From a virus (taxonomy: Duplodnaviria; Caudoviricetes), in the IMG/VR virus record IMGVR_UViG_3300032030_002018: a stretch of 64,000 nucleotides of DNA; one strand, given 5' to 3'. Under the pieces are notes generated by a model. The model made no database searches. It was not told where the DNA came from and saw nothing but the letters and a program-made list of their open reading frames with translations. Positions 1,400-21,000 of the stretch are shown in pieces (position 1 is the stretch's first letter; every line of letters starts with the position of its first letter). The position numbers were made by a program, and so were the translations under genes.

Positions 1400-2050
1400 T
1401 TATAATTTTAGTTCTTTATCAATTTTTGCAAGTTTCAAGAAATGCTGTAATTCGTGTACATATTTAACATCCATTATGAATGTTCCATTTTCCCTGGTAA
1501 TACAGAATCTATCTTCTCTTGCCTCGATATTATATCCAATATGCGTTACCTCCGGTATATGTCCTAAAACATAAGTCTCAAATACATTAAGATATTTGGT
1601 TTTGTCAAAATTCTTATTTATAAATTCCCTTGATAAAGGTATTGGATAAAAAACGCAACTAGATATATTACAACGTAGTTGTAAAACTTCGTTTACTCCG
1701 TTTCTTCTGCTATAAACAAAATCGCCATACATTAAATCATCCTTTGTGAGAATTGGTTCTGTTTGTAATAGTGTTTTTGCACTTTCATCCCATTCAAAAC
1801 CTGCTGCTTTTAACTTATTATAAAAGTCAATATATTCAATATTGTTTGCAAATCTTTTATCTTCCAATTGCAACGCAAGTTTATGGTTGTAAAAATACAT
1901 AAATGAGCTATTTGCAATCATACAATAAGCAGATGTAAATAAAATACCGCGTTCTTCTGTAACAGTTCCGTCACAAAGATATATTTGGTGTGATATTTCG
2001 CTAATCAAAACATCGCCATTCTTCAAGTTCTTAATATCTTTCTTATCCAT
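1400..2050 (-). CDS. Hypothetical phage protein
   Basis: Long ORF; start placed at the MDKK ATG overlapping the upstream stop. Confidence 0.65.
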   Translation of the reverse strand: MDKKDIKNLKNGDVLISEISHQIYLCDGTVTEERGILFTSAYCMIANSSFMYFYNHKLALQLEDKRFANNIEYIDFYNKLKAAGFEWDESAKTLLQTEPILTKDDLMYGDFVYSRRNGVNEVLQLRCNISSCVFYPIPLSREFINKNFDKTKYLNVFETYVLGHIPEVTHIGYNIEAREDRFCITRENGTFIMDVKYVHELQHFLKLAKIDKELKL

Positions 2051-2870
2051 CGATTTTTTTCTCAAAAAATTCAACTATTTTTTTAATTTCAACTATTTTA
2101 CCAACATTTGTTGAATCCTTGTCATTCAATTTCTCATTTATTATTGATAAGACAAACATAATACCAATTTTATTTGCATTGATTAAAAGTTCTTCCCATT
2201 TGTTCAGTTTAATACCACTGTCACAATCGTTGAAAACTTTTTTCATAACGCTTAAAGAATTCGACAAATCCAATTCCTTTCCACACGATTTATATGTAAC
2301 AGAATCATTGTTTGAGTCTTCTTTTTTGGATTGGATTTCTCTTATTTCCTCATAATTCAATTCATCAGCAGGTGTGAAAGGATATACTCCTTTATCTTTT
2401 GAATAGCACAAGTTAGCCTTTTTAAGTTCTTCAATATAATCTGACTCCTGTTTCTCTGACGCAAATACAAACTCATTAATCGGTGCTACGAAAATATCAC
2501 CAGTAATGGCATAGCATACAAGTTCATCACAACCGTTATTACCGTTTGCATCATAACTGAAATATTTTTTATCCTTTACAATATAAACATTTCCGTTGAT
2601 ATTAACAACAAAATCCCCAACTTTGAATAAATACTTTCCCCATTCACTCCAATTTCTACACACGCGTTCTGGCCACAAAGAACAAGGATATGAATCATCG
2701 CCAATAAGCTGTCCAAAATTAGAAAAAGAAAAATACTTGTCACCGTCACTTACAATTACCTTTTCATCTGTTGAAATTTCCCTGTATTCTACATATCCAA
2801 ATGAATCAGACCATAATCTCAATCCAGGTCTCGCATTTCTCAAAACTTCGCAAACATTAAACATTTCCAT
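2043..2870 (-). CDS. Hypothetical phage protein
   Basis: 275-aa ORF in operon. Confidence 0.7.
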   Translation of the reverse strand: MEMFNVCEVLRNARPGLRLWSDSFGYVEYREISTDEKVIVSDGDKYFSFSNFGQLIGDDSYPCSLWPERVCRNWSEWGKYLFKVGDFVVNINGNVYIVKDKKYFSYDANGNNGCDELVCYAITGDIFVAPINEFVFASEKQESDYIEELKKANLCYSKDKGVYPFTPADELNYEEIREIQSKKEDSNNDSVTYKSCGKELDLSNSLSVMKKVFNDCDSGIKLNKWEELLINANKIGIMFVLSIINEKLNDKDSTNVGKIVEIKKIVEFFEKKIDG

Positions 2871-2885
2871 TTGTTTTTAATAAAT

Positions 2886-3599
2886 TTATCCTTTTATTTC
2901 TTTCATTTTTGCAATCGCTTTCTCATCGTGTTCCCACAGATAATAATCAACTTTTTTCTTTTTGTCTTTCTGAAATACCCAAAACACACTGTTATAATTC
3001 CTTGCGTGTTGCTGCTCTTTTATCTGTCCGCTCAACAACCTTGATTTCGCATTCAGATTGAACTTGTCCAATGTTGTAAAACCAGCCTTTTCAGCCTCCA
3101 ACCAAGTATATTCCTCATTTGCGTAGAACCTTGAACTTGATATGGTATTCTGGCATTTCACGACAAATATTCCACCATCCTTCAATATTCTGTAAGCTTC
3201 ATTTATCCAATGATGATAAGACTCGTGTAGTTCATACATTGGATAATAAGAAGAAAACCTCTTTGATATTATACAGCTTCCGTCCTTGATTGGCTTATCA
3301 GTTCTTGGACCACATACAAAAGGTGGGTCAAACATAATACTTAAAACGGATTCATCCTCTAACGGCAAAGAACCCCAGGGTTCAATCTTAACAACATCTT
3401 CCAATTGTGGGAATACATCAAATTTAAGAATTGGTTCAGGAACTTCTATGTCCTTACTGTTCTTCTTTTTATAAAATCCACCAGTACTGTACGTTATATC
3501 AACATCAAATGGGTTTCCATTATTATGCATATTGATAATATTCATAATAATCTCCTTTTGATTAGTGGACACATTTCTTATAACTTCATTATACTCCAT
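2886..3599 (-). CDS. Putative DNA adenine methyltransferase
   Basis: FDVDITYSTGG SAM-binding-like motif followed by DPPF catalytic motif. Confidence 0.75.
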   Translation of the reverse strand: MEYNEVIRNVSTNQKEIIMNIINMHNNGNPFDVDITYSTGGFYKKKNSKDIEVPEPILKFDVFPQLEDVVKIEPWGSLPLEDESVLSIMFDPPFVCGPRTDKPIKDGSCIISKRFSSYYPMYELHESYHHWINEAYRILKDGGIFVVKCQNTISSSRFYANEEYTWLEAEKAGFTTLDKFNLNAKSRLLSGQIKEQQHARNYNSVFWVFQKDKKKKVDYYLWEHDEKAIAKMKEIKG

Positions 3600-5092: not shown

Positions 5093-5629
5093 ATGAGAAA
5101 AAGGATAAGATTAACTGAAAATGAGTTAAATTCTTTAGTGAACAAATCTGTTAAAAGGATATTAAGTGAAACACACTGGCGAACGAGTTTAGATGCATAT
5201 AATAAATCGTCAGAATTGGTAGACGGTGTTTACCACATAATAGATAATCTTAGGGAGGTTGAAAGTTTTTTAAGAGACTATGCTGAATCTGTTAAAGGAG
5301 CAAAACCAATGTATGTTAAATTTGCAGGGTACATAGATGAAATATTCAACTATCTTATGAGAAAACACGACCAAATGTCGAATTTTGAAGAACTTTCTGA
5401 CGAAAATTTTAAAAATCAGCACGATGGAAAAACATTATCTCAATATACGGATGATTTTGAAAATGAAACTATGAGAGATGACTTTGAAGGGTTTAATGAT
5501 ACCAACGACCCAAGTGGTAAAAAAAGAAAATTCCAAGATTATTATGACGGTCCAAGTACTTACCAAAGAAGAACTGGGGAATACATACCAAATCCGGACT
5601 ATTATGAAAAATCAAGAAGGGCTAGGTAA
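5093..5629 (+). CDS. Hypothetical protein with LTENEL leader
   Basis: MRKRIRLTENELNSLVNKSVKRILSE; GATATTTAT at 5063. Confidence 0.7.
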   Translation: MRKRIRLTENELNSLVNKSVKRILSETHWRTSLDAYNKSSELVDGVYHIIDNLREVESFLRDYAESVKGAKPMYVKFAGYIDEIFNYLMRKHDQMSNFEELSDENFKNQHDGKTLSQYTDDFENETMRDDFEGFNDTNDPSGKKRKFQDYYDGPSTYQRRTGEYIPNPDYYEKSRRAR

Positions 5630-5671
5630 AATCTATTCTAATTACCATATGGTAAAAAAAATGAGCAATCT

Positions 5672-6607
5672 TTAAACGGATTGCTCATTTTCTTGTTCTG
5701 ATGATACTTGTTCGACTGTTTCAATGTCTTCTTTATATCTTTCTTTTGCTATTTTCAAAAAATCAGTTGGATTAACATTTATATCATTTACAGTGCTTCC
5801 AAGATTATCGTTCAGGAATATAATTTTTTCTCCATCTACTGTAGCCACTATATATAATATAGATTTATGTTCAAAGTTAGTATAATTAAACTTCAATCCT
5901 TGAATTCTTTGAATAAAATCATCTACTACAGCCTTATCAGCGCCAGAATCAACCAATTGTCTAACTCCGCTAATAGGCGATTTAGGTGGTAGATAATTTG
6001 CGACTTGTTCTTTTGTCAATTCAGCTGTTATGTGCCCTGACTTATCAATGATATAATATCTTGAATTAATATTGGCTCCGTATGTATTTTGAGGGGTATA
6101 AGAATTACCTTTTTTCTCATCGTTTTCACCATTATATGTTTTTACGTGATGACTGTAATCCATATCTTTGGTATAAGCCTTTTTCTTCCCCATCGGGTCA
6201 ATTCCAAATTCTCCTCTTATAGTGTTAACATCGTTTTTGTATTTATCATATAAGGCATTAACTCTATCAGTTTTATTAAATCTGAAATTATAACTTGTTA
6301 ATTTGATTATGCCTCCAATTTCTCCTTCGTATCCCATTTCCTTACCAAATGATTCATAATCGTCATAACCTTTCTTTCTATTAGTCAGAGGATTTATACG
6401 TTGAACCTTTGGCAGAACTAACTTTGCACTATTCACATAACCAATTGTAACGAACTTGTTGTTTCCAATCTTATCCAAAATATCAAATAAAACGTTTGGA
6501 GACTCAACTTTTCTGGCTTCAGTCAACATCTTTGAAGACTTAAAACCATTAATGTTCTCCATTAATGACAATATTCTGTTTAATTCTTTGCAATCTTTTC
6601 TTTCCAT
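5672..6607 (-). CDS. Hypothetical phage protein
   Basis: 311-aa ORF. Confidence 0.75.
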   Translation of the reverse strand: MERKDCKELNRILSLMENINGFKSSKMLTEARKVESPNVLFDILDKIGNNKFVTIGYVNSAKLVLPKVQRINPLTNRKKGYDDYESFGKEMGYEGEIGGIIKLTSYNFRFNKTDRVNALYDKYKNDVNTIRGEFGIDPMGKKKAYTKDMDYSHHVKTYNGENDEKKGNSYTPQNTYGANINSRYYIIDKSGHITAELTKEQVANYLPPKSPISGVRQLVDSGADKAVVDDFIQRIQGLKFNYTNFEHKSILYIVATVDGEKIIFLNDNLGSTVNDINVNPTDFLKIAKERYKEDIETVEQVSSEQENEQSV

Positions 6608-6647
6608 TGATATGTAATTTATTTTTTTTTATTTAATCATCATCTTC

Positions 6648-6790
6648 ACAGTATGTTAAAACTTGAACAAACTTGTCTGTCCATTATTAACTTCTTGCTT
6701 CAACCTACCACTGCTTTTTAGTGCCTCATCACTGAGTCTGTCATCCACAGTTGGATAGTCCACAAGCATAAATTCTGTAGTACTGCTACC
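6648..6790 (-). ncRNA. omegaRNA/reRNA scaffold of the IS607 TnpB (copy A)
   Basis: Overlaps the tnpB 3' end; 5' hairpin GUAG-CAGUA-CUAC whose loop can pair with the 3'-terminal UACUG; homologous to 10230-10335 and 14506-14652. Confidence 0.75.
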
Positions 6791-6889
6791 TACTATTCTT
6801 AAACCTTCATCAAGTATGTTTAACGCTGCATTGTAGTCTCGCTCAATCACTTCACCACAAACAGGGCATAACCATTGTCTGTCACTCAA
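6656..6889 (-). pseudogene. tnpB: TnpB C-terminal remnant (Zn finger and RuvC-III)
   Basis: [21 protein letters not shown]; N-terminal part absent. Confidence 0.85.
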
Positions 6890-7018
6890 CTTCAGTTCTT
6901 TATTGCTCTTAACATAAATTTCCTATTTAATCATCTTCTGTACACCACATACCACCAGGACAACTTGTGTCATTAAACGGACAGTCGGTACATTTATCTT
7001 TATTTTCTTCTTTGTTGT

Positions 7019-7300
7019 TCATTTTCTTCTGTTAAATTCATCTATAATATTTTGTGACGGTTTGCCAACTGATGCCAAATACTTATAGTAAAGTTTTTTG
7101 CAAACAAATGGGTTTCCATTACAACCGTCTGTATCTTTATGCGACCAAGGAAGCATACATTCAGGATAGCCATTATCCCACCACTCACATTCGTTTCCAA
7201 ATTCAAAAAGCAATTTATTCGCCTTTCTATTAACAGATGTTCTTTGTTTATTTTTTCCCATCTTTCTTATTTTTTCTCCTTTCAGCACTTCTGCGTCCAT
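7019..7300 (-). CDS. Hypothetical Cys-containing protein inside the IS607 remnant
   Basis: 93-aa ORF between the tnpA and tnpB fragments; start uncertain. Confidence 0.5.
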   Translation of the reverse strand: MDAEVLKGEKIRKMGKNKQRTSVNRKANKLLFEFGNECEWWDNGYPECMLPWSHKDTDGCNGNPFVCKKLYYKYLASVGKPSQNIIDEFNRRK

Positions 7301-7625
7301 AATACTTCCCTGAGAATGAAGCCAACAGTGACATCATATCAGCAGCCAATTCCTCAGTATCAGATACGTCCATACCATTTATCACAATTACCTCACACCC
7401 ATAACTCTCAAACATCTTCTTGATGAACTTGAATTGGAATCGTGTAAGTCTATCCTTATGTTCTATTACCAACTTATTGACCTTTTGTTTTATTATCAAG
7501 TCAGTCAGTTTAACAAAGCCACTTCTATTGTCATTCAAACCACTACCAACATCTTTTATTATATGTGTGACAAGCATTCCTTTCTTGGCGCAATACTCAG
7601 ATAGTCTCTGTGATTGTCTATCCAA
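7248..7625 (-). pseudogene. tnpA: IS607-family serine recombinase TnpA, N-terminally disrupted
   Basis: DVGSGLN...IEHKDRLTRF...SFSGKYYGRRS motifs; catalytic YARVS region missing. Confidence 0.8.
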
Positions 7626-7842
7626 ATCACCTTTCTGTTTTTGCTCATCTTTCTTTCCAATAACCAGGTCTATGTCTATCAGCCTCCTTTAATACTTTAT
7701 TGGTGGCTTCTTGTACGATGTTATTTATTTCGTATTCTGTTATGGGTTTCATTTTTTTGTTATCTTTCTATATAAATATGATTCACAATAAAAAAGTTAC
7801 CAATGGTCATTAAACAATTTCCTTGGTAACTTTAAGCAATCA

Positions 7843-8121
7843 TTACTTCTTCTCTTCTTCCTTCTTTGGTGATAAAATGCCAAACAACTTGTCAAGTTCC
7901 TTAATTTTGTCGTTCAGTTCCTGACCATTTACCTCAACAGTAAAATCATTGTTGTTAACCTTATCACCAATCGAACTAATTGTTGACATTACGTCATTCT
8001 TCAACGAATCAAAATACTTCTTTCCAACAATGGTTTGAGCCTCAGTCTTTGAGTAACCGGCTTCAACCAAATTCTTGAATAATTCTTTTCTGAATTCTGA
8101 ATCTAAAATCCTCATAATCAA
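7843..8121 (-). CDS. Hypothetical protein
   Basis: 92-aa ORF downstream of tRNA-Arg. Confidence 0.65.
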   Translation of the reverse strand: MIMRILDSEFRKELFKNLVEAGYSKTEAQTIVGKKYFDSLKNDVMSTISSIGDKVNNNDFTVEVNGQELNDKIKELDKLFGILSPKKEEEKK

Positions 8122-8144
8122 TACAATAATAATAAAAAAAAATG

Positions 8145-8218
8145 TACATCCTCTGAGATTCGAACTCAGGACCCACAGTTTAGGAAACTGTTGCTCTATC
8201 CAACTGAGCTAAGGATGC
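8145..8218 (-). tRNA. tRNA-Arg(CCU)
   Basis: Cloverleaf GCATCCT...AGGATGT-A; anticodon arm ACAGT-TTCCTAA-ACTGT. Confidence 0.92.
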
Positions 8219-8242
8219 AACATAATTATTTAAATGACATTG

Positions 8243-8274
8243 CAAATGTATATTATTTTTTTGTAAAAACCAAA
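8243..8274 (-). promoter_or_regulatory. Bacteroidota housekeeping-sigma-type promoter
   Basis: TTTG-N20-TACATTTG directly upstream of tRNA-Arg. Confidence 0.8.
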
Positions 8275-8290
8275 TATTTTAGAAACTATT

Positions 8291-8596
8291 TCATCTTCTT
8301 CCAATTCTTATCCTTGAATTATTTCTTCCAACTGAATTTCCCTGTGGTCTTCCGTGATTTACATTAGGACGTTCAGATACTCTTGGATATCTTTGTGGCT
8401 CTCTACGATAAATAACTCTTGGTGGAGGAACAGGTCTGCTGTACTCCCTCACAATAACAGTTCTCGGCGGCGTTGTTACAACAACAGTTCCAACATATGG
8501 ATACGGGTCATATATAATGCCATATTCGTCACAAGAACTAAATGCTATTGCGACGAATATAAATGCTAAAATGTATAATATCTTTTTCATAGGCAA
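8291..8596 (-). CDS. Putative lipoprotein with Pro/Arg-rich tail
   Basis: MKKILYILAFIFVAIAFSSC lipobox-like signal. Confidence 0.65.
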   Translation of the reverse strand: MPMKKILYILAFIFVAIAFSSCDEYGIIYDPYPYVGTVVVTTPPRTVIVREYSRPVPPPRVIYRREPQRYPRVSERPNVNHGRPQGNSVGRNNSRIRIGRR

Positions 8597-8622
8597 TTAT
8601 TATTTTTACCTATAAATATAAG

Positions 8623-9510
8623 TTATTTTTCGTTTTTATCTTCCTGAATCAATTCAAATGGTTCTTCCTTTGTTTCTTCAACTCTTTTCTGCGCAATATC
8701 ACAGTATCGTCTGTCAATATCAATTCCAATATAATGTCTGCCAGTCCTTTTTGCAACAGCACAGGTTGTTCCAACTCCATTGAATATATCCATCACAGTA
8801 TCTCCACGAAAGCTGAATAGTCTAAGGATTCTATCTGCAATTGCTTCTGGAAACATTGCAGGATGTCCCCATTCTTTCATATTCCTTTCACCAGGAATAT
8901 TCCATATATTGCTCTTTACCCATTCAGAGAACTCTAATTTCTGCATATCGTCAGAGTTGTATGGCTGTTTAAAATGCTTTATATCACCTTTTGAATATAT
9001 CTCAATAAATTCAACCATAGATTTCATATATGGACTTGAAGAACTCAAATAACTACCCCAACAGGAATAATGTACATTGCGATTATTCTTATTCCATATA
9101 ATCTCATTTCGCCATATCATTTTATTCTCAATCATCAATGATGTTATCATATGATGTGTTGGAATAAAATCACTCATCAATGGCATTGTGTTTATTGCGA
9201 TTCTACCACCATATTTCGTTACACGTATTACCTCTTTTAATATTGCGAATAATTGATTGAAATATTCCTCATTGGTGGATGTATCGTCATATTCACCATA
9301 TTCCTTGCCAAAATTATATGGTGGGGAAGTAAAGGTCAAATCAATGCAATTGTCAGGCAATGTTTTTAAAAACTCCAAACTATCTGCACATATAATAGCA
9401 TCATTTATTGGAGAATCATTGTTGACCTTTGAAAAGGTATTGCCATTGGCATAATAATGCAATACCCTTTTGTTCTTTCTCTTATTTATTATTTTCTTTG
9501 TTTCAGACAT
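8623..9510 (-). CDS. DNA methyltransferase, N4C/N6A, beta class
   Basis: TSPPY, HPAMFP and DIFNGVG motifs; ATG overlaps the terminal CRISPR repeat. Confidence 0.9.
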   Translation of the reverse strand: MSETKKIINKRKNKRVLHYYANGNTFSKVNNDSPINDAIICADSLEFLKTLPDNCIDLTFTSPPYNFGKEYGEYDDTSTNEEYFNQLFAILKEVIRVTKYGGRIAINTMPLMSDFIPTHHMITSLMIENKMIWRNEIIWNKNNRNVHYSCWGSYLSSSSPYMKSMVEFIEIYSKGDIKHFKQPYNSDDMQKLEFSEWVKSNIWNIPGERNMKEWGHPAMFPEAIADRILRLFSFRGDTVMDIFNGVGTTCAVAKRTGRHYIGIDIDRRYCDIAQKRVEETKEEPFELIQEDKNEK

Positions 9511-10134
9511 CTTTATATACCTTTATTTTTAAGGTCTTCTACAACATATAATAATATTTTTTTATTTTACCTAAGTTGTATATACCTTTATTTTTAAGGT
9601 CTTCTACAACATACTCCTACCTTTCTTTTCTGATTCTATGTTGTATATACCTTTATTTTTAAGGTCTTCTACAACATTATTGCAAAAGTCTGCTACGATT
9701 CATAGTTGTATATACCTTTATTTTTAAGGTCTTCTACAACATTTTCTAACTATCGAACCATAAGGCATCTGTTGTATATACCTTTATTTTTAAGGTCTTC
9801 TACAACACATTCGCTAACAAATCCTTTGACTTGGCAGTTGTATATACCTTTATTTTTAAGGTCTTCTACAACAGGGGGGGGATGTGTTGATGGTATGTGG
9901 TGTTGTATATACCTTTATTTTTAAGGTCTTCTACAACTTGGTGCTATGCTTTCAAGGATAAGTTTAAGTTGTATATACCTTTATTTTTAAGGTCTTCTAC
10001 AACTCATTTGGAGACATCCTTTTAGAACCTTCGTTGTATATACCTTTATTTTTAAGGTCTTCTACAACCACCAAGACATTATATAAATGGTGCAAAGAGT
10101 TGTATATACCTTTATTTTTAAGGTCTTCTACAAC
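9510..10134 (-). CRISPR. CRISPR array: 10 repeats of 36 bp (GTTGTAGAAGACCTTAAAAATAAAGGTATATACAAC), 9 spacers of 29-30 bp
   Basis: Identical repeats start (+ coordinates) at 9575, 9640, 9705, 9771, 9837, 9902, 9968, 10033 and 10099; degenerate repeat at 9510-9545 taken as the trailer, implying minus-strand transcription. Confidence 0.97.
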
Positions 10135-10180: not shown

Positions 10181-10340
10181 GTGATGTAAAAGACCATTAT
10201 TTTAAGGTCGTGGCATTCATTTTGCCACAGTTTTTCTGTTTCATTCTACCACTACTTTTTAGCGAATTGTTTCCAATTGGGTCATCCATAGTTGGGTAGT
10301 CCGCAGACTTAACATCCCCGATACACCTGGGTAGGGTTTT
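10181..10340 (-). ncRNA. Putative tracrRNA derived from a TnpB omegaRNA (copy C)
   Basis: 10230-10335 aligns with omegaRNA copies A and B; hairpin GUGGCA...UGCCAC; anti-repeat GACCUU-AAAA-UAAUGGUCUUUUACAUC at 10183-10209. Confidence 0.75.
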
Positions 10341-10359: not shown

Positions 10360-11604
10360 TTATTTTGTTTCTGTCAGAATTCTATATCCTTCGTTCCTGA
10401 TATTTATCGCTGCATTTATATCCCTATCGTGTTCTATTCCGCATTGTGGGCATTTCCACATTCTTATTTTTAAGTTCTTTAATTCCTTGTTTTGATATCC
10501 ACAATTTGAGCATATCTGAGAACTTGGATAAAATCTGTCTATAACAGATAAGTTCTTTCCGTACCAATCACACTTATATGTAAGTTGTCGTCTCATTTCT
10601 CCCATATTGGCGTTTGTTATTGATTTTGCTATATGGTGATTTTTGACCATTCCCTTGACATTCAAATCCTCAATGCAAATAGTGTTGATGTTATCATTAT
10701 TCTTCGCCACATATGAAGTGATTTGGTGTGTATTGTAATTTCTTTTACCTGCTATTCTATTTTGTAATTTTGCAATCTTGTCTTTAAGTTTAATGTAATT
10801 TTTAGAAGGAACTTTAACCTCAACATCCTTGTTATACTTGTGTGAAAACACTGTCTCACCGGTTTTTATCCATTTTTTCTTGGATAGTTTTCTTTCAAGT
10901 TTTTTAAGTCTTTTTTCAAGTTTGGAATCCTTTTCATTCGTCGGAAATTTTGTGCCGTCAGACGTAATGGCATTTGAGTCTGTCTTAACACCCATATCAA
11001 TTCCAATAGATTTTTCTATTGATGGAGTTTCCTTTTCTTTTGCCTTAAAATCGTCATCGCATAGAATTGATATTTCATAGTAATCAAATGATTTCTTTGA
11101 AATAGTAAATTGGGTGATTCTACCCTGTATTTTTTTATGCAGTATAATTTTCACCCAATGAGGATGTCTTGGATTTTGTGGGTTAACAATTCTTACAAGA
11201 GATTTTTTGAAATTGAAAATCTTTTTGTTATCAGTTTCTTGTATTTGTATTGCAAATGAATTTCCGTATTTTTTACTTTTAAACCTAGGTTCATCCGCAA
11301 GTTTTTTAAACCATCTATCAAAAGCAGAATCAAGGTTTGACGCTGTATATATATAAGATATAGCTGGTGCTACCTTTAAAAATTCTGTATCTTGATTTCT
11401 TTTCAATACAGGAAGGTCTCTTGACACATCATATTGTGCGCTTAAGTGTTTTTTAGCTGTATCATTGTCTTTGTTTTCTTGATAATGTTTTTTTATTTTC
11501 TCTAAACAGTAATTCCACCACCAAACATTTGACTTAAAACATTTGTCAAAATATTCTTTTTGTTCATCGTTAGGATATATCCTGTATTTATATGCTCTTT
11601 TCAT
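10360..11604 (-). CDS. CRISPR-associated TnpB/Cas12f-like RNA-guided nuclease (414 aa)
   Basis: AYKYRIYP N-terminus; RuvC-I GIDMG, RuvC-II IEDL, Zn finger CSNC/CPQC, RuvC-III DRDINAA; adjacent array; no adjacent transposase. Confidence 0.9.
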   Translation of the reverse strand: MKRAYKYRIYPNDEQKEYFDKCFKSNVWWWNYCLEKIKKHYQENKDNDTAKKHLSAQYDVSRDLPVLKRNQDTEFLKVAPAISYIYTASNLDSAFDRWFKKLADEPRFKSKKYGNSFAIQIQETDNKKIFNFKKSLVRIVNPQNPRHPHWVKIILHKKIQGRITQFTISKKSFDYYEISILCDDDFKAKEKETPSIEKSIGIDMGVKTDSNAITSDGTKFPTNEKDSKLEKRLKKLERKLSKKKWIKTGETVFSHKYNKDVEVKVPSKNYIKLKDKIAKLQNRIAGKRNYNTHQITSYVAKNNDNINTICIEDLNVKGMVKNHHIAKSITNANMGEMRRQLTYKCDWYGKNLSVIDRFYPSSQICSNCGYQNKELKNLKIRMWKCPQCGIEHDRDINAAINIRNEGYRILTETK

Positions 11605-12050
11605 TTTCTGTTAAAATGAGGGTGTCTCATAAAACGCTTGAATTGCTTCCTTGATTCATAATATTTTGCGACTTTGAACTCCTTGTCATATACATATCCA
11701 CAGTATATTCCACCGTTATCATACCATAATATTACTCGGCGTTCATCCTCTTTTACATTGAACTCAAAATGTCTTCCAAAACAATAGCTGTTATATAGCA
11801 CAATAGCCATAGAACCATCAGAAGTCTTCTTGATAATCATTTTGTCCTTATGAGGAACTGGTGCCATATAATCACCATTCCCTAATGATATGAACTCATC
11901 ATTATCAATGTCCTTGTCAAAATGAATCATAATACGCTCAATGGGTAATGAATCAACTACCTCATACTTTGAAAAATCAAATGGTTTCATTTGAGCGAAT
12001 ACAAACGAAGATATTGAAAATACAACTAAACTTAAAATGAACTTTTTCAT
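11601..12050 (-). CDS. Hypothetical exported protein
   Basis: Signal peptide MKKFILSLVVFSISSFVFA; stop overlaps the nuclease ATG (ATGA). Confidence 0.7.
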   Translation of the reverse strand: MKKFILSLVVFSISSFVFAQMKPFDFSKYEVVDSLPIERIMIHFDKDIDNDEFISLGNGDYMAPVPHKDKMIIKKTSDGSMAIVLYNSYCFGRHFEFNVKEDERRVILWYDNGGIYCGYVYDKEFKVAKYYESRKQFKRFMRHPHFNRK

Positions 12051-13429: not shown

Positions 13430-13461
13430 CAAATGTATATTATTTATTTTAAATATCCAAA
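13430..13461 (-). promoter_or_regulatory. Bacteroidota-type promoter
   Basis: TTTG-N20-TACATTTG. Confidence 0.8.
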
Positions 13462-13500: not shown

Positions 13501-14143
13501 TACGTGTGCCGGGACTCGAACCCGGAACTTGCAGTTTCATACCACTCTATGTTACCATAGCCAAACACTCTAAAATTCTTGCATTATTATCCCTATAGTT
13601 TTATGCTGCTCTTAGAGGGATTGCCTAAAAACTTGTGTTTGTTGTGGTCTGGGCTGTCTCTGTACCATATTGAAATTCTTGCAAGATATGAGTGTAGTTT
13701 CTATAACTACCAAGAGCAGTCCCTGTACTGCTGCTTTCAACGTCTTAAGGTTTTAACTTTATACTCATAAATTTCAACTTAGGTATCTCCCGTTCAGTCT
13801 CTACACGATTATAGCTTATTCTCTCCCCTTATTACCATCACTTCTGTAGAGAGTTTACCCACCCGATATAAGCCATTTTCGCTCGGTGTTGTCCTTACAC
13901 ATTATTGTTTAGTGTCCTGTTTATTCAATAAGTATTTCTCAGGGGAGGGTTTCCACCTCCAATTATGCAAACCATAAAGGCATTTTACTGCATACGTCAA
14001 TCGTTTCACTTTCGCCACCTGGGGTCCATCATACTTATCTAAAGGATTTCCACCGAATTTAGGAGATTCTACATAGGGATTTCTCGCCTATGCATCCAAT
14101 TTTAATAGAAGACTGCTATTCTATCCAGTTGAATTACACACGT
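13501..14143 (-). tRNA. tRNA-Arg(UCU) interrupted by a group I intron
   Basis: Exon 1 14107-14143 (..GCAGT-CTTCT) and exon 2 13501-13537 (AA-ACTGC..) join into a canonical cloverleaf. Confidence 0.88.
13538..14106 (-). ncRNA. Group I intron (569 nt) inserted after anticodon U36
   Basis: U before the 5' splice site, terminal G, core motifs AAATTCGGTGGAA, GTAGAGACTGAACGG and AGAGACAGCCC; homologous to the intron at 15537-16054. Confidence 0.85.
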
Positions 14144-14157
14144 CTGTGTTTTTTTTG

Positions 14158-14228
14158 ATGCCCCAGAACGAGTCGGACGTTCCTAACAAGAGCCAAAATC
14201 TTGTGCATTACCGCTATGCTATAGGGCA
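14158..14228 (-). tRNA. tRNA-Gln(UUG)
   Basis: TGCCCTA/TGGGGCA; CAAGA-TTTTGGC-TCTTG; T loop TCCGACT. Confidence 0.85.
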
Positions 14229-14233
14229 GTATC

Positions 14234-14347
14234 AGGTATCTATAAAACAACTGGAGTTGCAGGATTCGAACCTACGTATCATCATTATTAGTGACGCATC
14301 TTAACCTCTTGATTAAACTTCACGTTTTAGATTGCTGTAAGATACCT
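14234..14347 (-). ncRNA. ACAGCAAU-motif RNA enclosing a tRNA-like domain (anticodon AAU)
   Basis: AGGTATCT-TACAGCAATC-TAAAAC-[cloverleaf 14251-14322]-GTTTTA-T-AGATACCT. Confidence 0.75.
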
Positions 14348-14351
14348 TTTG

Positions 14352-14424
14352 TAGCCGGCACGGGATTCGAACCCGTATGGGCAGAATGAAAATCTGCAAT
14401 CCTAACCTGTTAGATGAACCGGCC
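14352..14424 (-). tRNA. tRNA-Glu(UUC)
   Basis: GGCCGGT/GCCGGCT; GCAGA-TTTTCAT-TCTGC. Confidence 0.9.
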
Positions 14425-14430
14425 ATCAAG

Positions 14431-14503
14431 AGCGGAAGACGAGATTTGAACTCGCAACTTTCAGCTTGGAAGGCTGACGCTCTGCCAATTGAGTTACTTC
14501 CGC
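14431..14503 (-). tRNA. tRNA-Gly(UCC)
   Basis: GCGGAAG/CTTCCGC-T; TCAGC-CTTCCAA-GCTGA. Confidence 0.93.
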
Positions 14504-14505
14504 AT

Positions 14506-14652
14506 ACTGTACGCTAAATTCTGAACAAACTTGTCTGTTCATTATTAACTTCTTGTTTCATCCTACCACTACTTTTTAGTACCTCATAGCTGAGTGTGTC
14601 ATCCATAGGAGGGCAGTCCGCAAGCGTAAATTCGGGTGTACAGCACCCTACG
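14506..14652 (-). ncRNA. Orphan TnpB omegaRNA scaffold (copy B)
   Basis: Aligns along its length with 6648-6790; hairpin GGGUG-CUGUA-CACCC whose loop pairs with the 3' UACAG; no tnpB ORF. Confidence 0.75.
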
Positions 14653-14687
14653 TTTAATAGATAAATACTCATTTTTTATTTACAATG

Positions 14688-14719
14688 CAAATGTACACTA
14701 TTTATTTGTAAAAAACAAA
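14688..14719 (-). promoter_or_regulatory. Bacteroidota-type promoter
   Basis: TTTG-N20-TACATTTG upstream of the orphan omegaRNA and tRNA run. Confidence 0.8.
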
Positions 14720-14736
14720 TTTTCAAACTTGAAATA

Positions 14737-14946
14737 TTATGATTTTAACGTTTTTTGCATTTCCTCATCCTCTAAATCATCAAGTTCAGACATTAAATCA
14801 TATAACTTCTCATTTTCAGCCTCATATATCTTTAAACTTTCATTACGATGATATGGATGGTCTATTCCTAATAAAGAATTCCTTACCTTAATACATTGGT
14901 CAGCAATCTCAATTTTCTTCTTTTCAAGTTCTGTTAATCTCTCCAT
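14737..14946 (-). CDS. Hypothetical protein
   Basis: MERLTELEKK portion of the listed ORF; the longer ORF overlaps tRNA-His. Confidence 0.55.
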   Translation of the reverse strand: MERLTELEKKKIEIADQCIKVRNSLLGIDHPYHRNESLKIYEAENEKLYDLMSELDDLEDEEMQKTLKS

Positions 14947-14963
14947 CTTCCAAATCATTTGAG

Positions 14964-15037
14964 GGAGTCTGATAGGATTCGAACCTATGTAAACAAGTGC
15001 CACAAACTTGCACCTAAACCTCTCGGCCACAAACTCC
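14964..15037 (-). tRNA. tRNA-His(GUG) with encoded G-1
   Basis: G-GAGTTTG/CAGACTC-C; CAAGT-TTGTGGC-ACTTG. Confidence 0.88.
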
Positions 15038-15050
15038 ATATATATTTATG

Positions 15051-15123
15051 TGCGCTCTGACAGACTCGGACTGTCAACTCCCAGATTAAAGGTCTGGTAC
15101 TCTGCCAATTGAGTTAAGAACGC
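15051..15123 (-). tRNA. tRNA-Lys(UUU), atypical C33 and T loop
   Basis: CCAGA-CCTTTAA-TCTGG; T loop TCCGAGT. Confidence 0.85.
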
Positions 15124-15130
15124 ATATACG

Positions 15131-15204
15131 CGCCCTGGGATGGGTTCGAACCACCGACATTTTGATTAACAGTCAAACGCTCTAACCAACTGAGCTACCA
15201 GGGC
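15131..15204 (-). tRNA. tRNA-Asn(GUU)
   Basis: GCCCTGG/CCAGGGC-G; TTTGA-CTGTTAA-TCAAA. Confidence 0.92.
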
Positions 15205-15280
15205 AGTTGTTGCAACTTAATTTGTTAAACATCAGAGGTTGCAACTTTGAATGTCCAAAACGCAAGGAAACATTCATTGT

Positions 15281-15366
15281 TGGCTTGGAAGGAATTGAAC
15301 CTTCACAGACATTTCTGTCTCTACATCCTAATTGTAGTGCGTCTCAACCATTTGCGCCACAATACC
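15281..15366 (-). tRNA. tRNA-Leu(UAG), imperfect acceptor stem
   Basis: CTACA-ATTAGGA-TGTAG, long variable arm. Confidence 0.75.
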
Positions 15367-15378
15367 AACATTATCTTT

Positions 15379-15466
<88 letters not shown>

Positions 15467-16183: not shown

Positions 16184-16287
16184 ATTTTTTATGTCACAAT
16201 ATGTCAAAGAACTCAACATTGCAAATGTACACAATTTATTTGTCATTTCCAAATATTTTAACGTATTTTATAAAAATGAATTATTTG

Positions 16288-16606: not shown

Positions 16607-16685
16607 TATTTTTTATTTCACAATGCAAATGTACACAATTTATTTTACAATTCCAAATATTTTGGTGTTAAAAATTGTTATTTTG

Positions 16686-16852: not shown

Positions 16853-18052
16853 CTACCCACAAACTAAAGATTTGTGGGCTTCTGACTTCATTGCTGACTG
16901 CCATTGAAATGGTCTTACATCTGCTCCATCAGTGTAATCGACAGTTCCTGCCGATATATTTCTTAATCCTTCTGCAAGGATATTCATTGCTGCATTAACA
17001 TCTCTGTCAAGAACTTCTCCACAATTTGGACAAGTCCATTCCCTATCTTTCAACGATAAGTCTTCTTTAACCCAACTACAACAATGGCAAGTCTTTGAAG
17101 ATGGGTAGTATCTACCTATCTTCACTACTTTCTTATTGTTCATAACTGCCTTGTAAGTAAGCATTGAAAGGAATGCTCCCCAACTTGCATCAGATATACT
17201 CTGAGCAAGTCTATGGTTTCTTTGCATACCCTTTACATTCAAGTCCTCACAACAAATTACATCATAATTCCTGATTAAGTCGGTGCTAATCTTATGTAAT
17301 TTGTCAAACCTACAGTTATGAATTTTCTCTTGTATTCTCGCAACCTTAATTCTTTGTCTGTTCCAAGAATTACTACCTTTCTGCTTTCTTGACAAATGTT
17401 TCTGCGATTTTGCAAGCTCTTTTGAATAACGCTTGATGAATTTGTTACTTGAATATCTCTTACCATCACTTGTGACTACCAAGTCTTTTAACCCCAAGTC
17501 TATACCAACCTTTGCATTGGTTTTCTGCAACGGTTCATATATAACTTGAGTAAGTATGGAAACATAATATTTTCCGCTCGGTGTAACAGAGATTGTCATA
17601 TTTCTGACATCGCCACCTTTGAATGGTCTATACTCCACTATCTTAATCCCATCTTTGAACTTTGGAATATATATCCTACCATTCTCAACAGAACAATGCT
17701 GTGGTATACGAAAACTTCCGCCATTTTTCTTTGCCTTGAATCTTGGAAACCTTGCATTACCACTAAAAAAATTAGTATATGCCGTTTCAAGATTTCTCAG
17801 TGCGAATTGAAGTGTCTGTGAATTGATTTCCTTTAACCACAAGTATTCTTCTTGTCTTTTTAGTTTGGTAAGTGCGCTTGCTTGTACATAGTAATTGTCA
17901 CTTTTACCATTATCAGTGTATTGCTGTTTTCTTTCAGCAAGAAAATGATTATAGACAAAACGTACAGACCCAAAATACCTTGCAAGTATTTGCTCTTGCT
18001 CCTTATTTGGGCACATTCTGTACTTATATGTCTTTAAAATCACTTTCATCAT
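16853..18052 (-). CDS. tnpB: IS605-family TnpB RNA-guided endonuclease
   Basis: GIDLG, CEDL, CHCC/CPNC, DRDVNAA. Confidence 0.95.
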   Translation of the reverse strand: MMKVILKTYKYRMCPNKEQEQILARYFGSVRFVYNHFLAERKQQYTDNGKSDNYYVQASALTKLKRQEEYLWLKEINSQTLQFALRNLETAYTNFFSGNARFPRFKAKKNGGSFRIPQHCSVENGRIYIPKFKDGIKIVEYRPFKGGDVRNMTISVTPSGKYYVSILTQVIYEPLQKTNAKVGIDLGLKDLVVTSDGKRYSSNKFIKRYSKELAKSQKHLSRKQKGSNSWNRQRIKVARIQEKIHNCRFDKLHKISTDLIRNYDVICCEDLNVKGMQRNHRLAQSISDASWGAFLSMLTYKAVMNNKKVVKIGRYYPSSKTCHCCSWVKEDLSLKDREWTCPNCGEVLDRDVNAAMNILAEGLRNISAGTVDYTDGADVRPFQWQSAMKSEAHKSLVCG

Positions 18053-18143: not shown

Positions 18144-18239
18144 ATGAGTTATTTTTCTAAAAATTGGTCTAACGGATATTTTGTATGCTCCATTAGTGAA
18201 GCAAATCCTGATACTATTAGAAAGTACATTGAGAATTAA
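18144..18239 (+). pseudogene. tnpA: IS200-type tnpA remnant
   Basis: The 5' (atgagttatttttcta) and 3' ends of the 19055-19453 gene are fused. Confidence 0.85.
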
Positions 18240-18572
18240 GGTTTATGCAATTCATCCCATTAACTAAAGATTAATGGGTTTTCTTGCATTATTTATATAA
18301 AAAATAAAAGCTGCTGAAACTTTTTTGGAGGTATCAACAGCTTGGGAAATATATAGTTAAGTAAGTGCGCCAATTTTACATCATATATTTTTCAAACTGT
18401 TTTAACCTTTTATTATTGGTATACGCCGGTGTATCACATTCTTGAATTGAATGTGAAAGACAAATGGATGGATATTTCTGACTAAAATTTTTCATTATAT
18501 GTTTAAGGTGATAATTTCTTTTTATAAATATATATAAATTTTTGAAAAAAACAAAATTTTTGAAAATATTTT

Positions 18573-19054: not shown

Positions 19055-19453
19055 TCAGCCTTGATTCTCAATATACTTTCTAATAGTATCAGGATTCGCT
19101 TCACCAATAGAACATACAAAATATCCATCAGACCAAAAAGTATGTTCCTTCCAAAAATGTTTTCTTAGTATTGGTTGGAACTCTTTCCAAAGTCTGTTTG
19201 TACTTACTTGTTTCAATACTCTGACAATTGAAGTAACTGTAATATTTGGCGGATAACTAATAAGAAGATGTATATGGTCTTTGTCCGTTTCCATTATCTC
19301 AATATCAAAGTCACATCTACTTTCTACTTCCTTAAATACTAAAAGAACACATTCTCTAATTTCAGAAACAAGTAGTTGTTTCCTGTACTTACAGACAAAT
19401 ATTAAGTGACATTTCAAGTAAAACTTGTGTCTATTATTAGAAAAATAACTCAT
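19055..19453 (-). CDS. tnpA: IS200-type Y1 HUH transposase
   Basis: HLIFVCKYR, DHIHLL (HUH), FWSDGYF, YIENQ. Confidence 0.95.
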   Translation of the reverse strand: MSYFSNNRHKFYLKCHLIFVCKYRKQLLVSEIRECVLLVFKEVESRCDFDIEIMETDKDHIHLLISYPPNITVTSIVRVLKQVSTNRLWKEFQPILRKHFWKEHTFWSDGYFVCSIGEANPDTIRKYIENQG

Positions 19454-19803: not shown

Positions 19804-21000
19804 ATGAAAGTGATTTTAAAGACATATAAGTACAGAATGTACCCAAATAAGGAGCAAGAGCAAATGCTTGCAAAGTATTTTGGGTCCGTACGTTTTGTCT
19901 ATAATCATTTTCTTGCCGAAAGAAAACAACAATACACTGAGAATGGAAAAAGTGATAACTATTATGCACAAGCAAGCACACTTACCAAACTAAAAAAACA
20001 AGAAGAATACTTGTGGCTAAAGGAAATCAATTCGCAAACACTTCAATTCGCACTTAGAAATCTTGAAACTGCATATACTAATTTCTTTAGGGGTAATGCA
20101 AGATTTCCAAGATTCAAGGCAAAGAAAAATGGTGGGAGTTTCCATATACCACAACATTGTTCTGTGGAGAATAGTAGAATTTACATACCAAAGTTCAAAG
20201 ATGGAATTAAAATAGTAGAACACAGACCATTCAAAGGCGGAGATGTCAGAAATATGACAATCTCTGTCACACCAAGCGGAAAATATTATGTTTCCATACT
20301 TACACAAGTTACATACGAGCCTTTACAGAAAACCAATGCAAAGGTTGGTATAGACTTGGGGTTGAAAGACTTGGTAATCACAAGTGATGGTAAAAAGTAT
20401 TCAAGCAATAAGTTCATTAAGCGTTATTCAAAAGAACTTGCAAAAGCACAGAAACACTTGTCAAGAAAGCAGAAAGGTAGCAATTCTTGGAACAGACAAA
20501 GAATTAAGGTTGCAAGAATACAAGAGAAAATTCACAATTGTAGATTTGATAAGTTACATAAAATTAGTACTGACTTAATCAGGAACTATGATGTAATTTG
20601 TTGTGAGGACTTGAATGTTAAAGGTATGCAAAGAAACCATAGACTTGCTCAGTCAATATTAGATGCAAGTTGGGGAGCATTCCTTTCAATGCTTACTTAC
20701 AAGGCAGTTATGAATGATAAACAAGTAGTGAAGATAGGTAGATACTACCCATCTTCAAAAACTTGTCATCATTGTGGTTGGGTTAAAGAAGACTTATCGT
20801 TGAAAGATAGGGAATGGACTTGTCCAAATTGTGGAGAAGTTCTTGACAGAGATGTTAATGCAGCAATGAATATCCTTGCAGAAGGATTAAGAAATATATC
20901 GGCAGGAACTGTCGATTACACTGATGGAGCAGATGTAAGACCCTTTCAAGGGCAATCAGCAAAGAAGTCAGAAGCCCACAAATCTTTAGTTTGTGGGTAG
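19804..21000 (+). CDS. tnpB: IS605-family TnpB
   Basis: Intact RuvC D/E/D and Zn finger; near-identical to 16853-18052. Confidence 0.95.
   Translation: MKVILKTYKYRMYPNKEQEQMLAKYFGSVRFVYNHFLAERKQQYTENGKSDNYYAQASTLTKLKKQEEYLWLKEINSQTLQFALRNLETAYTNFFRGNARFPRFKAKKNGGSFHIPQHCSVENSRIYIPKFKDGIKIVEHRPFKGGDVRNMTISVTPSGKYYVSILTQVTYEPLQKTNAKVGIDLGLKDLVITSDGKKYSSNKFIKRYSKELAKAQKHLSRKQKGSNSWNRQRIKVARIQEKIHNCRFDKLHKISTDLIRNYDVICCEDLNVKGMQRNHRLAQSILDASWGAFLSMLTYKAVMNDKQVVKIGRYYPSSKTCHHCGWVKEDLSLKDREWTCPNCGEVLDRDVNAAMNILAEGLRNISAGTVDYTDGADVRPFQGQSAKKSEAHKSLVCG

Follow-up and report, generated by a model that had tools for sequence, protein, structure and literature searches.

A 161-nt element that lies between a promoter and a tRNA-Gly gene of a huge phage is best read as a guide-RNA-only derivative, devoid of tnpB, of an IS607-linked TnpB element of Lak-like megaphages. 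The DNA under study is a stretch of 64,000 nt, in the following simply called the window. Its best DNA matches are the Prevotella phages Lak-A1/C1, and the source phage is a Lak-like megaphage. The core of the finding, namely that the element contains an omegaRNA scaffold and that it is a discrete insertion, is very probably correct when both points are taken together. The complete reading, in which this guide-only IS607/TnpB derivative is also transcribed through the tRNA-Gly leader and homes in trans, combines observed and inferred parts, and we estimate its joint probability at about 0.5.

The omegaRNA scaffold upstream of tRNA-Gly

The minus strand of the window carries 15 tRNA genes, and three TnpB ORFs were found in the window, at 10360-11604(-), 16853-18052(-) and 19804-21000(+). 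The features of the tRNA-Gly locus, listed in the direction of transcription, are the following:

14688-14719, minus strand: predicted promoter of the Bacteroidota phage type (TTTG, 20-nt spacer, TAcaTTTG), which serves the tRNA-Gly-Glu-Ile-Gln unit and predates the insert
14667-14687, minus strand: original leader of tRNA-Gly upstream of the insert, from aligning the filled with the empty allele; its last bases are TGAGT (14667-14671)
14506-14666, minus strand: insert of 161 nt, missing in the relative L180; AGT at both junctions makes its bounds ambiguous by 3 nt
14654-14666, minus strand: left piece of the insert, 13 nt, of unassigned origin and too short for an IS607 left end
14506-14653, minus strand: omegaRNA scaffold, from the covariance model, base pairs and family covariation
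14634-14648, minus strand: 5' hairpin of the scaffold, whose loop (14639-14643, CUGUA) forms the 5' pseudoknot strand
14507-14511, minus strand: 3' strand of the pseudoknot (UACAG), with the final scaffold base next to it at 14506
14486-14505, minus strand: guide position, consisting of AU and the first 18 nt of tRNA-Gly, from the right-end geometry of the family
14430-14503, minus strand: tRNA-Gly(UCC), from ARAGORN and the Rfam tRNA model (66.6 bits), at the head of a Gly-Glu-Ile-Gln cluster

The scaffold, in the following also called the orphan scaffold, was initially recognised by its similarity to sequences that accompany TnpB. Over 146 nt, 14506-14651(-) is 81.5% identical to 6648-6793(-), which follows a C-terminal remnant of TnpB. 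The orphan scaffold is also 77% identical over 69 nt to 10237-10305(-), located directly after the TnpB at 10360-11604, and over 145 nt it shares 77.7% identity with the 3' end of a full TnpB gene in the Prevotella phages Lak-A1/C1. Comparison of 14506-14687 with Rfam, RAGATH-18 included, gave no match at the gathering threshold or at E values up to 10, and the single-sequence fold of the scaffold was uninformative (z-scores of -0.7 and -1.15).

A covariance model was built from an alignment of 52 distinct TnpB-linked copies, all of them from other huge-phage contigs. The orphan scaffold matches this model over its full length (positions 1-155 of 155) with 126.7 bits and an E value of about 1e-24, a score that falls inside the range of the TnpB-linked copies (73-157 bits). 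According to the model, the architecture comprises a hairpin at the 5' end, a variable hairpin enclosed by three nested long-range helices, two helices on the 3' side and a pseudoknot. In the orphan scaffold, 34 of the 35 family base pairs are standard pairs, those of the pseudoknot included.

Covariation was assessed for seven helices, again including the pseudoknot, in a model-based alignment of 81 distinct sequences. Across the family, 87.5% of the cells are paired, compared to 35-52% when the partners are slid, and the covariation score is 0.41, compared to at most 0.12 in the slid controls. None of 500 shuffles reached the observed values. The pseudoknot helix taken by itself is paired in 81% of cases across the 81 distinct members, and each of its five pairs shows changes on both sides. 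The orphan carries CUGUA/UACAG, and the family variants are CCGUA/UACGG, CAGUA/UACUG and CUGUG/CACAG. The covarying pseudoknot that had been described beforehand is thus retained and varies as expected of a paired element.

Neither a TnpB ORF nor a tblastn match to TnpB was found within 1800 nt upstream of the orphan scaffold. With the full-length model match, the 34 of 35 pairs and no TnpB-like ORF adjacent, the original prediction of a complete omegaRNA scaffold without a tnpB ORF holds, and by these comparisons 14506-14653(-) is such a scaffold.

The scaffold and tRNA-Gly lie on one strand, 2-3 nt apart: the conserved ..ACAGT ends at 14506, followed by AT and then by the tRNA. The spacing is given as a range because the AGT at the junction is common to the filled and the empty allele. 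With the scaffold ending at 14506 and tRNA-Gly starting at 14503, the distance of 2 nt that had been foreseen was recovered. The tRNA-Gly sequence also occupies the place of the guide, as had been proposed, with AU and the 5' end of the tRNA following the scaffold. No terminator-like site was found between the promoter and the tRNAs.

Promoter and empty allele of the tRNA-Gly unit

In the promoter consensus of Bacteroides, about 19-21 nt separate TTTG at -33 from TAnnTTTG at -7. The predicted promoter at 14688-14719 fits this housekeeping-type consensus of the Bacteroidota. The pattern occurs at 18 sites in the window, compared to 3.9 +/- 2.1 expected, which amounts to a 4.6-fold enrichment, and no shuffle out of 100 reached 18 sites. 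On the gene strand, before genes and other tRNAs, lie 16 of the 18 sites. This enrichment lends weight to the consensus promoter that had been noticed upstream of the scaffold. Around TTTG...TAnnTTTG an extended motif of about 50 nt is strongly conserved, and it precedes both tRNAs and protein genes; this motif probably represents one temporal class of phage promoters. Minus-strand sites are located, for example, at 8243-8274, 13430-13461, 16222-16253, 16626-16657 and 56873-56904.

A relative without the scaffold was found on JGI contig L180, which was traced via a 97% identical homologue of the 69-aa ORF located between tRNA-His and the promoter; an exact look-up of this ORF gave no match. 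Positions 25-395 of L180 correspond to 15042-14672 of the window (98.4%) and positions 401-864 to 14508-14042 (96.4%), and between them the scaffold is absent. The gene order is common to both, namely tRNA-His, the ORF, the promoter and tRNA-Gly, Glu, Ile and Gln. In L180, just a 26-nt leader leads from the promoter, which is identical to that of the window, to tRNA-Gly. Other tRNA units in the window have similarly short leaders.

Because L180 has the flanks, the promoter and the gene order without the scaffold, the insert can be delimited to 14506-14666, i.e. 161 nt. The comparison of empty and filled sites upstream of tRNA-Gly among related phages, proposed beforehand as a check, therefore provided a clean empty allele, and the alignment shows the 161-nt element as a discrete insertion polymorphism that separates phages of 96-98% identity. 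The filled allele is no assembly artefact, as a Logan contig from a second sample (L179) is identical to it across 14066-15408 and an ENA contig shows its gene spacing. The short leaders of the neighbouring tRNA units suggest, short of proof and in a comparison with no outgroup, that the empty state is older than the filled one.

The empty allele also changes the view of the promoter. The original prediction had assigned it to the omegaRNA as its own, and this part had to be abandoned: the same promoter stands 26 nt upstream of tRNA-Gly in L180 and consequently belongs to the tRNA unit and not to the omegaRNA. As judged from the two alleles, the element landed in the leader of a pre-existing tRNA transcription unit and borrows its promoter.

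At the junctions, the left flank ends in TGAGT in the window and in TAAGT in L180, and the element's own end is ACAGT, with the last three bases alike in all of them. The empty allele has the 20 nt of the guide position without a change, directly after TAAGT in this one empty site. TGAGT/TAAGT (14667-14671) is named here, from a single site and by analogy with IS607, as a candidate target-adjacent motif (TAM) or recombination core.

Further relatives of the locus were sought by other routes. The GenBank phage collection contained no syntenic tRNA array, exact scans of IMG/VR and of JGI metagenome contigs with this tRNA-Gly gave no match, and a degenerate tRNA-Gly scan returned 90 loci, none of them related outside the tRNA itself. 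At the other end of the tRNA cluster, directly downstream of tRNA-Gln, a group I intron model shows a weak match at 13778-14116(-) (24 bits, E 0.0017), and the sequence of L180 differs from that of the window in this intron-like region.

The scaffold family of megaphages and its relation to IS607

When IMG/VR was scanned with a short pattern from the core, more than 80 loci were obtained, most of them on contigs of 100-550 kb. In about 60 of these, TnpB lies directly upstream according to tblastn. About 15 loci have no TnpB, counting those with at least 1300 nt of upstream sequence. Overall, the scaffold family comprises more than 90 copies in Lak-like megaphage contigs, and about one sixth of them are without tnpB and keep the structure. 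The scores of the tnpB-less copies are like those of the linked copies, and their mean number of pairs is 30.5 of 35, compared to 29.4 in the linked ones. One of the tnpB-less copies, L048, has a truncated 5' end. Five others (L007, L010, L014, L015 and L050) have sequence directly upstream with homology to what precedes tnpB in full elements, and by this homology they are internal-deletion derivatives that retain both ends. The tnpB-less scaffolds are therefore a recurrent class and not a one-off.

The family is also found close to tRNA genes more often than expected. A same-strand tRNA starts within 300 nt of the right end in 12 of 90 copies, compared to about 3 expected from local tRNA density. 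This enrichment in front of tRNA genes holds for both linked and orphan copies, and the copy in the window, with 2 nt, is the extreme case. Two tnpB-less scaffolds, L028:796-937 and L029:954-1096, end 21-23 nt before a tRNA-Tyr, i.e. at about one guide length. A cut by RNase P in these two would possibly leave a tail of about guide length, and thus a natural tRNA-processed guide RNA. In L015, about 75 nt that resemble the 3' part of a tRNA come after the orphan scaffold at 11676-11833; they contain sequences like an anticodon arm and a T arm, and tRNA-Gly and tRNA-Glu are next. A tRNA gene may have been the insertion site of this element.

The nearest TnpB-linked relatives of the orphan scaffold are those of contigs L017 and L063. 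L017 has the first 14 nt of the scaffold, a run that occurs in no other IMG/VR contig, and its pseudoknot type matches that of the orphan. Homology of the orphan locus to the L017-type tnpB tail begins at about 14657. A serine recombinase (resolvase) gene adjoins tnpB in L017, L063, L037, L051 and L067; the scaffold family is thus in part IS607-like, and most of its copies are solo tnpB. The comparison of filled and empty alleles likewise revealed neither inverted repeats nor a target duplication, and a common AGT core precedes both junctions, which is IS607-like.

In the case of the 161-nt element itself, no serine recombinase gene (tnpA) was found at the locus, and the 13-nt left piece matched none of the sequences upstream of tnpB or tnpA in the relatives. 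The left ends of L017 and L063, as well as the TAM of the family, were sought and none could be defined. The element ends in ..ACAG(T) and not in GG, and other subfamilies end in ..ACGG(T) or ..ACTG(T). Lacking tnpA, tnpB, a left end and a GG terminus, the element is not itself an IS607. The idea of a minimal non-autonomous IS607 derivative consequently survives in one half: descent from such an element is the favoured reading, in line with the clean empty allele, whereas mobilisation by a serine recombinase is doubtful, as only 13 nt lie left of the scaffold and no IS607 left end is recognisable. So few bases would not suffice for a recombinase to bind, and the mini-element probably does not transpose. 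Most likely, a full element inserted and its genes were then lost by internal deletion. Two other origins were considered and rejected: an in-frame internal deletion of tnpB, because the TnpBs of the family start with MLRA.. and not with MSIY.., and, for this copy, a left end of the element in the upstream sequence, which is the phage's own promoter.

These features can be set beside a described IS607 system, the C. botulinum IStron, in which CboTnpB has the TAM TGGG and the scaffold ends in TCGG, so that the last bases are common (bioRxiv 10.1101/2023.11.20.567912). The difference between TAM and scaffold end lies further in, and through it the element avoids cutting itself (bioRxiv 10.1101/2023.11.20.567912). 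TAAGT and ACAGT of the present locus parallel TGGG and TCGG, with the TAM being guessed from one empty site. A serine recombinase in the nearest TnpB-linked relatives, together with junctions without inverted repeats or target duplication beyond the core, is a further likeness. Unlike IS607 elements, the orphan locus is without tnpA and tnpB, ends in AG(T) instead of GG and matches no Rfam family.

The window itself holds two other scaffolds of this kind:

6641-6795, minus strand: sister scaffold ('copy6'), 127.4 bits in the covariance model, situated in a decayed IS607
10187-10336, minus strand: related scaffold with a divergent 3' part, 85.9 bits, after the CRISPR-linked TnpB 10360-11604

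The decayed IS607 (6641-7625(-)) contains a resolvase fragment at 7248-7625, without the N-terminal DNA-binding part and the catalytic serine region, and a TnpB cut down to its last 77 aa at 6656-6889; the Pfam matches are Resolvase and Cas12f1-like_TNB. JGI contig L177 is 100% identical to 5095-9825 of the window. The scaffold of the CRISPR-linked TnpB has its protein-proximal core in common with the orphan scaffold. This TnpB is about 33-35% identical to the TnpBs that bear the orphan-type scaffold, and it now uses a split guide. After it lies a CRISPR array at 9545-10134(-), in which 10 repeats of 36 nt alternate with 9 spacers of 29-30 nt. In its 3' half, the repeat is similar to the 3' end of scaffolds of the one-piece family, and the spacers matched none of the sequences fetched for comparison.

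The two remaining TnpBs, 16853-18052(-) and 19804-21000(+), are of the IS605 type, with 94% mutual identity and a common right end that stops at a GC-rich hairpin. A Y1 transposase (19055-19453(-)) accompanies the TnpB at 19804-21000, and a Y1 fragment lies at 18165-18242. Both were rejected as partners of the orphan scaffold, because their right-end RNA is of another family. In Lak-A1/Lak-C1 (L001/L002), one in-frame stop, as read with table 11, interrupts the TnpB ORF at 1872-3134, and about 2 kb downstream lies a suppressor-type tRNA with the anticodon UUA; the stop and this tRNA are consistent with stop-codon recoding.

Possible function, alternatives and meaning

RNase P removes the 5' leader of a pre-tRNA whatever its sequence. 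TnpB binds its own scaffold and takes the approximately 16 nt that follow it as the guide. On this background, the promoter would give rise to one precursor that contains the leader, the scaffold, tRNA-Gly and then the following tRNAs. RNase P would cleave it at the 5' end of the tRNA and leave most scaffold copies with a tail of 2 nt. Because the cut falls at the 5' end of the tRNA, the tRNA would be unharmed, and the leader would be a safe and highly transcribed landing site. A compatible TnpB, made elsewhere in the genome, may capture some of the precursor before RNase P does and so obtain a guide against empty alleles. The empty alleles of co-infecting relatives would then be cut, and the 161-nt element would be copied when they are repaired with the filled genome as template. 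Such homing in trans would need neither a left end nor a transposase. A weak point of this sequence of events is the distance of 2-3 nt to the tRNA, since efficient RNase P would remove the guide, and active guided complexes may therefore be rare or absent.

Two kinds of known elements resemble the locus most. Standalone omegaRNAs of OMEGA systems have been reported to function in trans together with compatible effectors (PMC10691335, citing Altae-Tran et al. 2021); the biological role of these RNAs is described there as unknown. Like these, the present locus has a complete scaffold with no adjacent nuclease or transposase, its flank fills the guide position, and the same genome holds effector-containing loci of a related kind. 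Unlike these, the orphan resides in a phage and not in a bacterial chromosome, and it lies in a tRNA precursor whose promoter it borrows. The tRNA 2-3 nt after the scaffold moreover sets tRNA maturation against guide retention, and activity in trans is here a prediction. The second kind are the PATE-like non-autonomous IS200/IS605 elements, which encode omegaRNAs (bioRxiv 10.1101/2023.03.14.532601). In common with them, the orphan encodes no protein, is a shortened derivative of a TnpB transposon in which the right end and the guide RNA remain, and would require TnpB in trans. PATEs, however, have both hairpin ends and a Y1 transposase moves them, whereas the orphan has only 13 nt left of its scaffold and its relatives carry a serine recombinase of the IS607 type, so that any spread would be by homing.

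In this latter respect, the free-standing homing endonuclease genes in the tRNA regions of T4-like phages, e.g. SegB, offer a parallel (PMC13096335, review PMC13565253). They too are selfish elements in a phage tRNA cluster, patchy among close relatives, with the empty allele as the presumed target. The orphan differs from them in that it encodes no nuclease; it would owe its specificity to an RNA guide and depend on a nuclease from another locus.

The main alternative is that the element is an inert hitchhiker, i.e. a dead TnpB remnant of recent origin that is transcribed only via the tRNA leader, removed and degraded, with its structure intact through youth. We give this explanation a considerable chance, somewhat below even. 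The window contains no TnpB of the matching subfamily, the sole related one being 10360-11604, and the IS607 that surrounds the sister copy at 6641-6795 is clearly decayed. Divergence between the flanks of the two alleles amounts to only 2-4%, and no difference separates the three filled copies, which leaves little time for decay. With alleles so young and filled copies identical, the intact structure may simply reflect youth. The 2-nt spacing, by which RNase P would strip the guide, points in the same direction. Against it stands the observation that tnpB-less copies recur in many unrelated megaphage contigs with their structure kept as in the linked copies. The retained part moreover begins a few bases from the 5' end of the scaffold and not at a random point of tnpB, and standalone omegaRNAs do work in trans elsewhere (PMC10691335).

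An action of the scaffold as decoy or regulator, which had been put forward with the original prediction, is improbable. Here the guide-less scaffold cut by RNase P would titrate or inactivate TnpB, including the CRISPR-linked one at 10360-11604. The near-identical core in the orphan and in the scaffold of this TnpB is in line with such a role, as are the strong predicted consensus promoter that would drive the orphan and the geometry that predicts a 2-nt tail. However, we found no evidence of a benefit, and closely related phages with the empty allele manage without the scaffold. Other tnpB-less copies lie 21-87 nt from the next tRNA or have no tRNA at all, and a guide-less product is thus no trait of the family.

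Finally, a small protein from the 52-codon open frame 14514-14672(-), derived from the C-terminal tail of TnpB, is very improbable: this open frame begins at an ATG and coincides with the frame of the TnpB tail in relatives, but it is inherited from tnpB, whose coding tail overlaps the RNA; the same RNA is non-coding in other subfamilies, where tnpB stops upstream, an exact look-up of the 52-aa product found no gene on record, and the sequence changes track base pairing and not codons.

The preferred reading, a guide-only derivative homing in trans, can be extended to the family as a whole. Guide-only mini-elements might form a regular layer of parasites on megaphage TnpB, situated in tRNA leaders with guides on tRNA 5' ends, with homing serving as a weapon between phages; we regard this extension as speculative and rather doubtful. 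Phage tRNA promoters would then express the mini-elements and RNase P would render them harmless, and TnpB supplied in trans would cut the empty alleles of co-infecting relatives, so that linked markers would home as well.

Altogether, the element is best filed with the standalone or PATE-like guide-only OMEGA elements, and it stems from an IS607-linked TnpB family for which Rfam has no model. New aspects are the occurrence in a phage, as a fusion with a tRNA precursor, the natural pair that the filled and the empty allele form, and the pattern across megaphages. As the filled allele and the empty, target-bearing allele are only a few percent apart, spread by means of a borrowed nuclease becomes directly testable. 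The locus links selfish elements with strong promoters and built-in RNA processing, both of which crowd the tRNA clusters of phages, and it is a possible natural counterpart to engineered fusions of tRNA and guide RNA. Even if it were only a young relic, it would still document the decay of TnpB elements in megaphages and tRNA leaders as their preferred safe sites.
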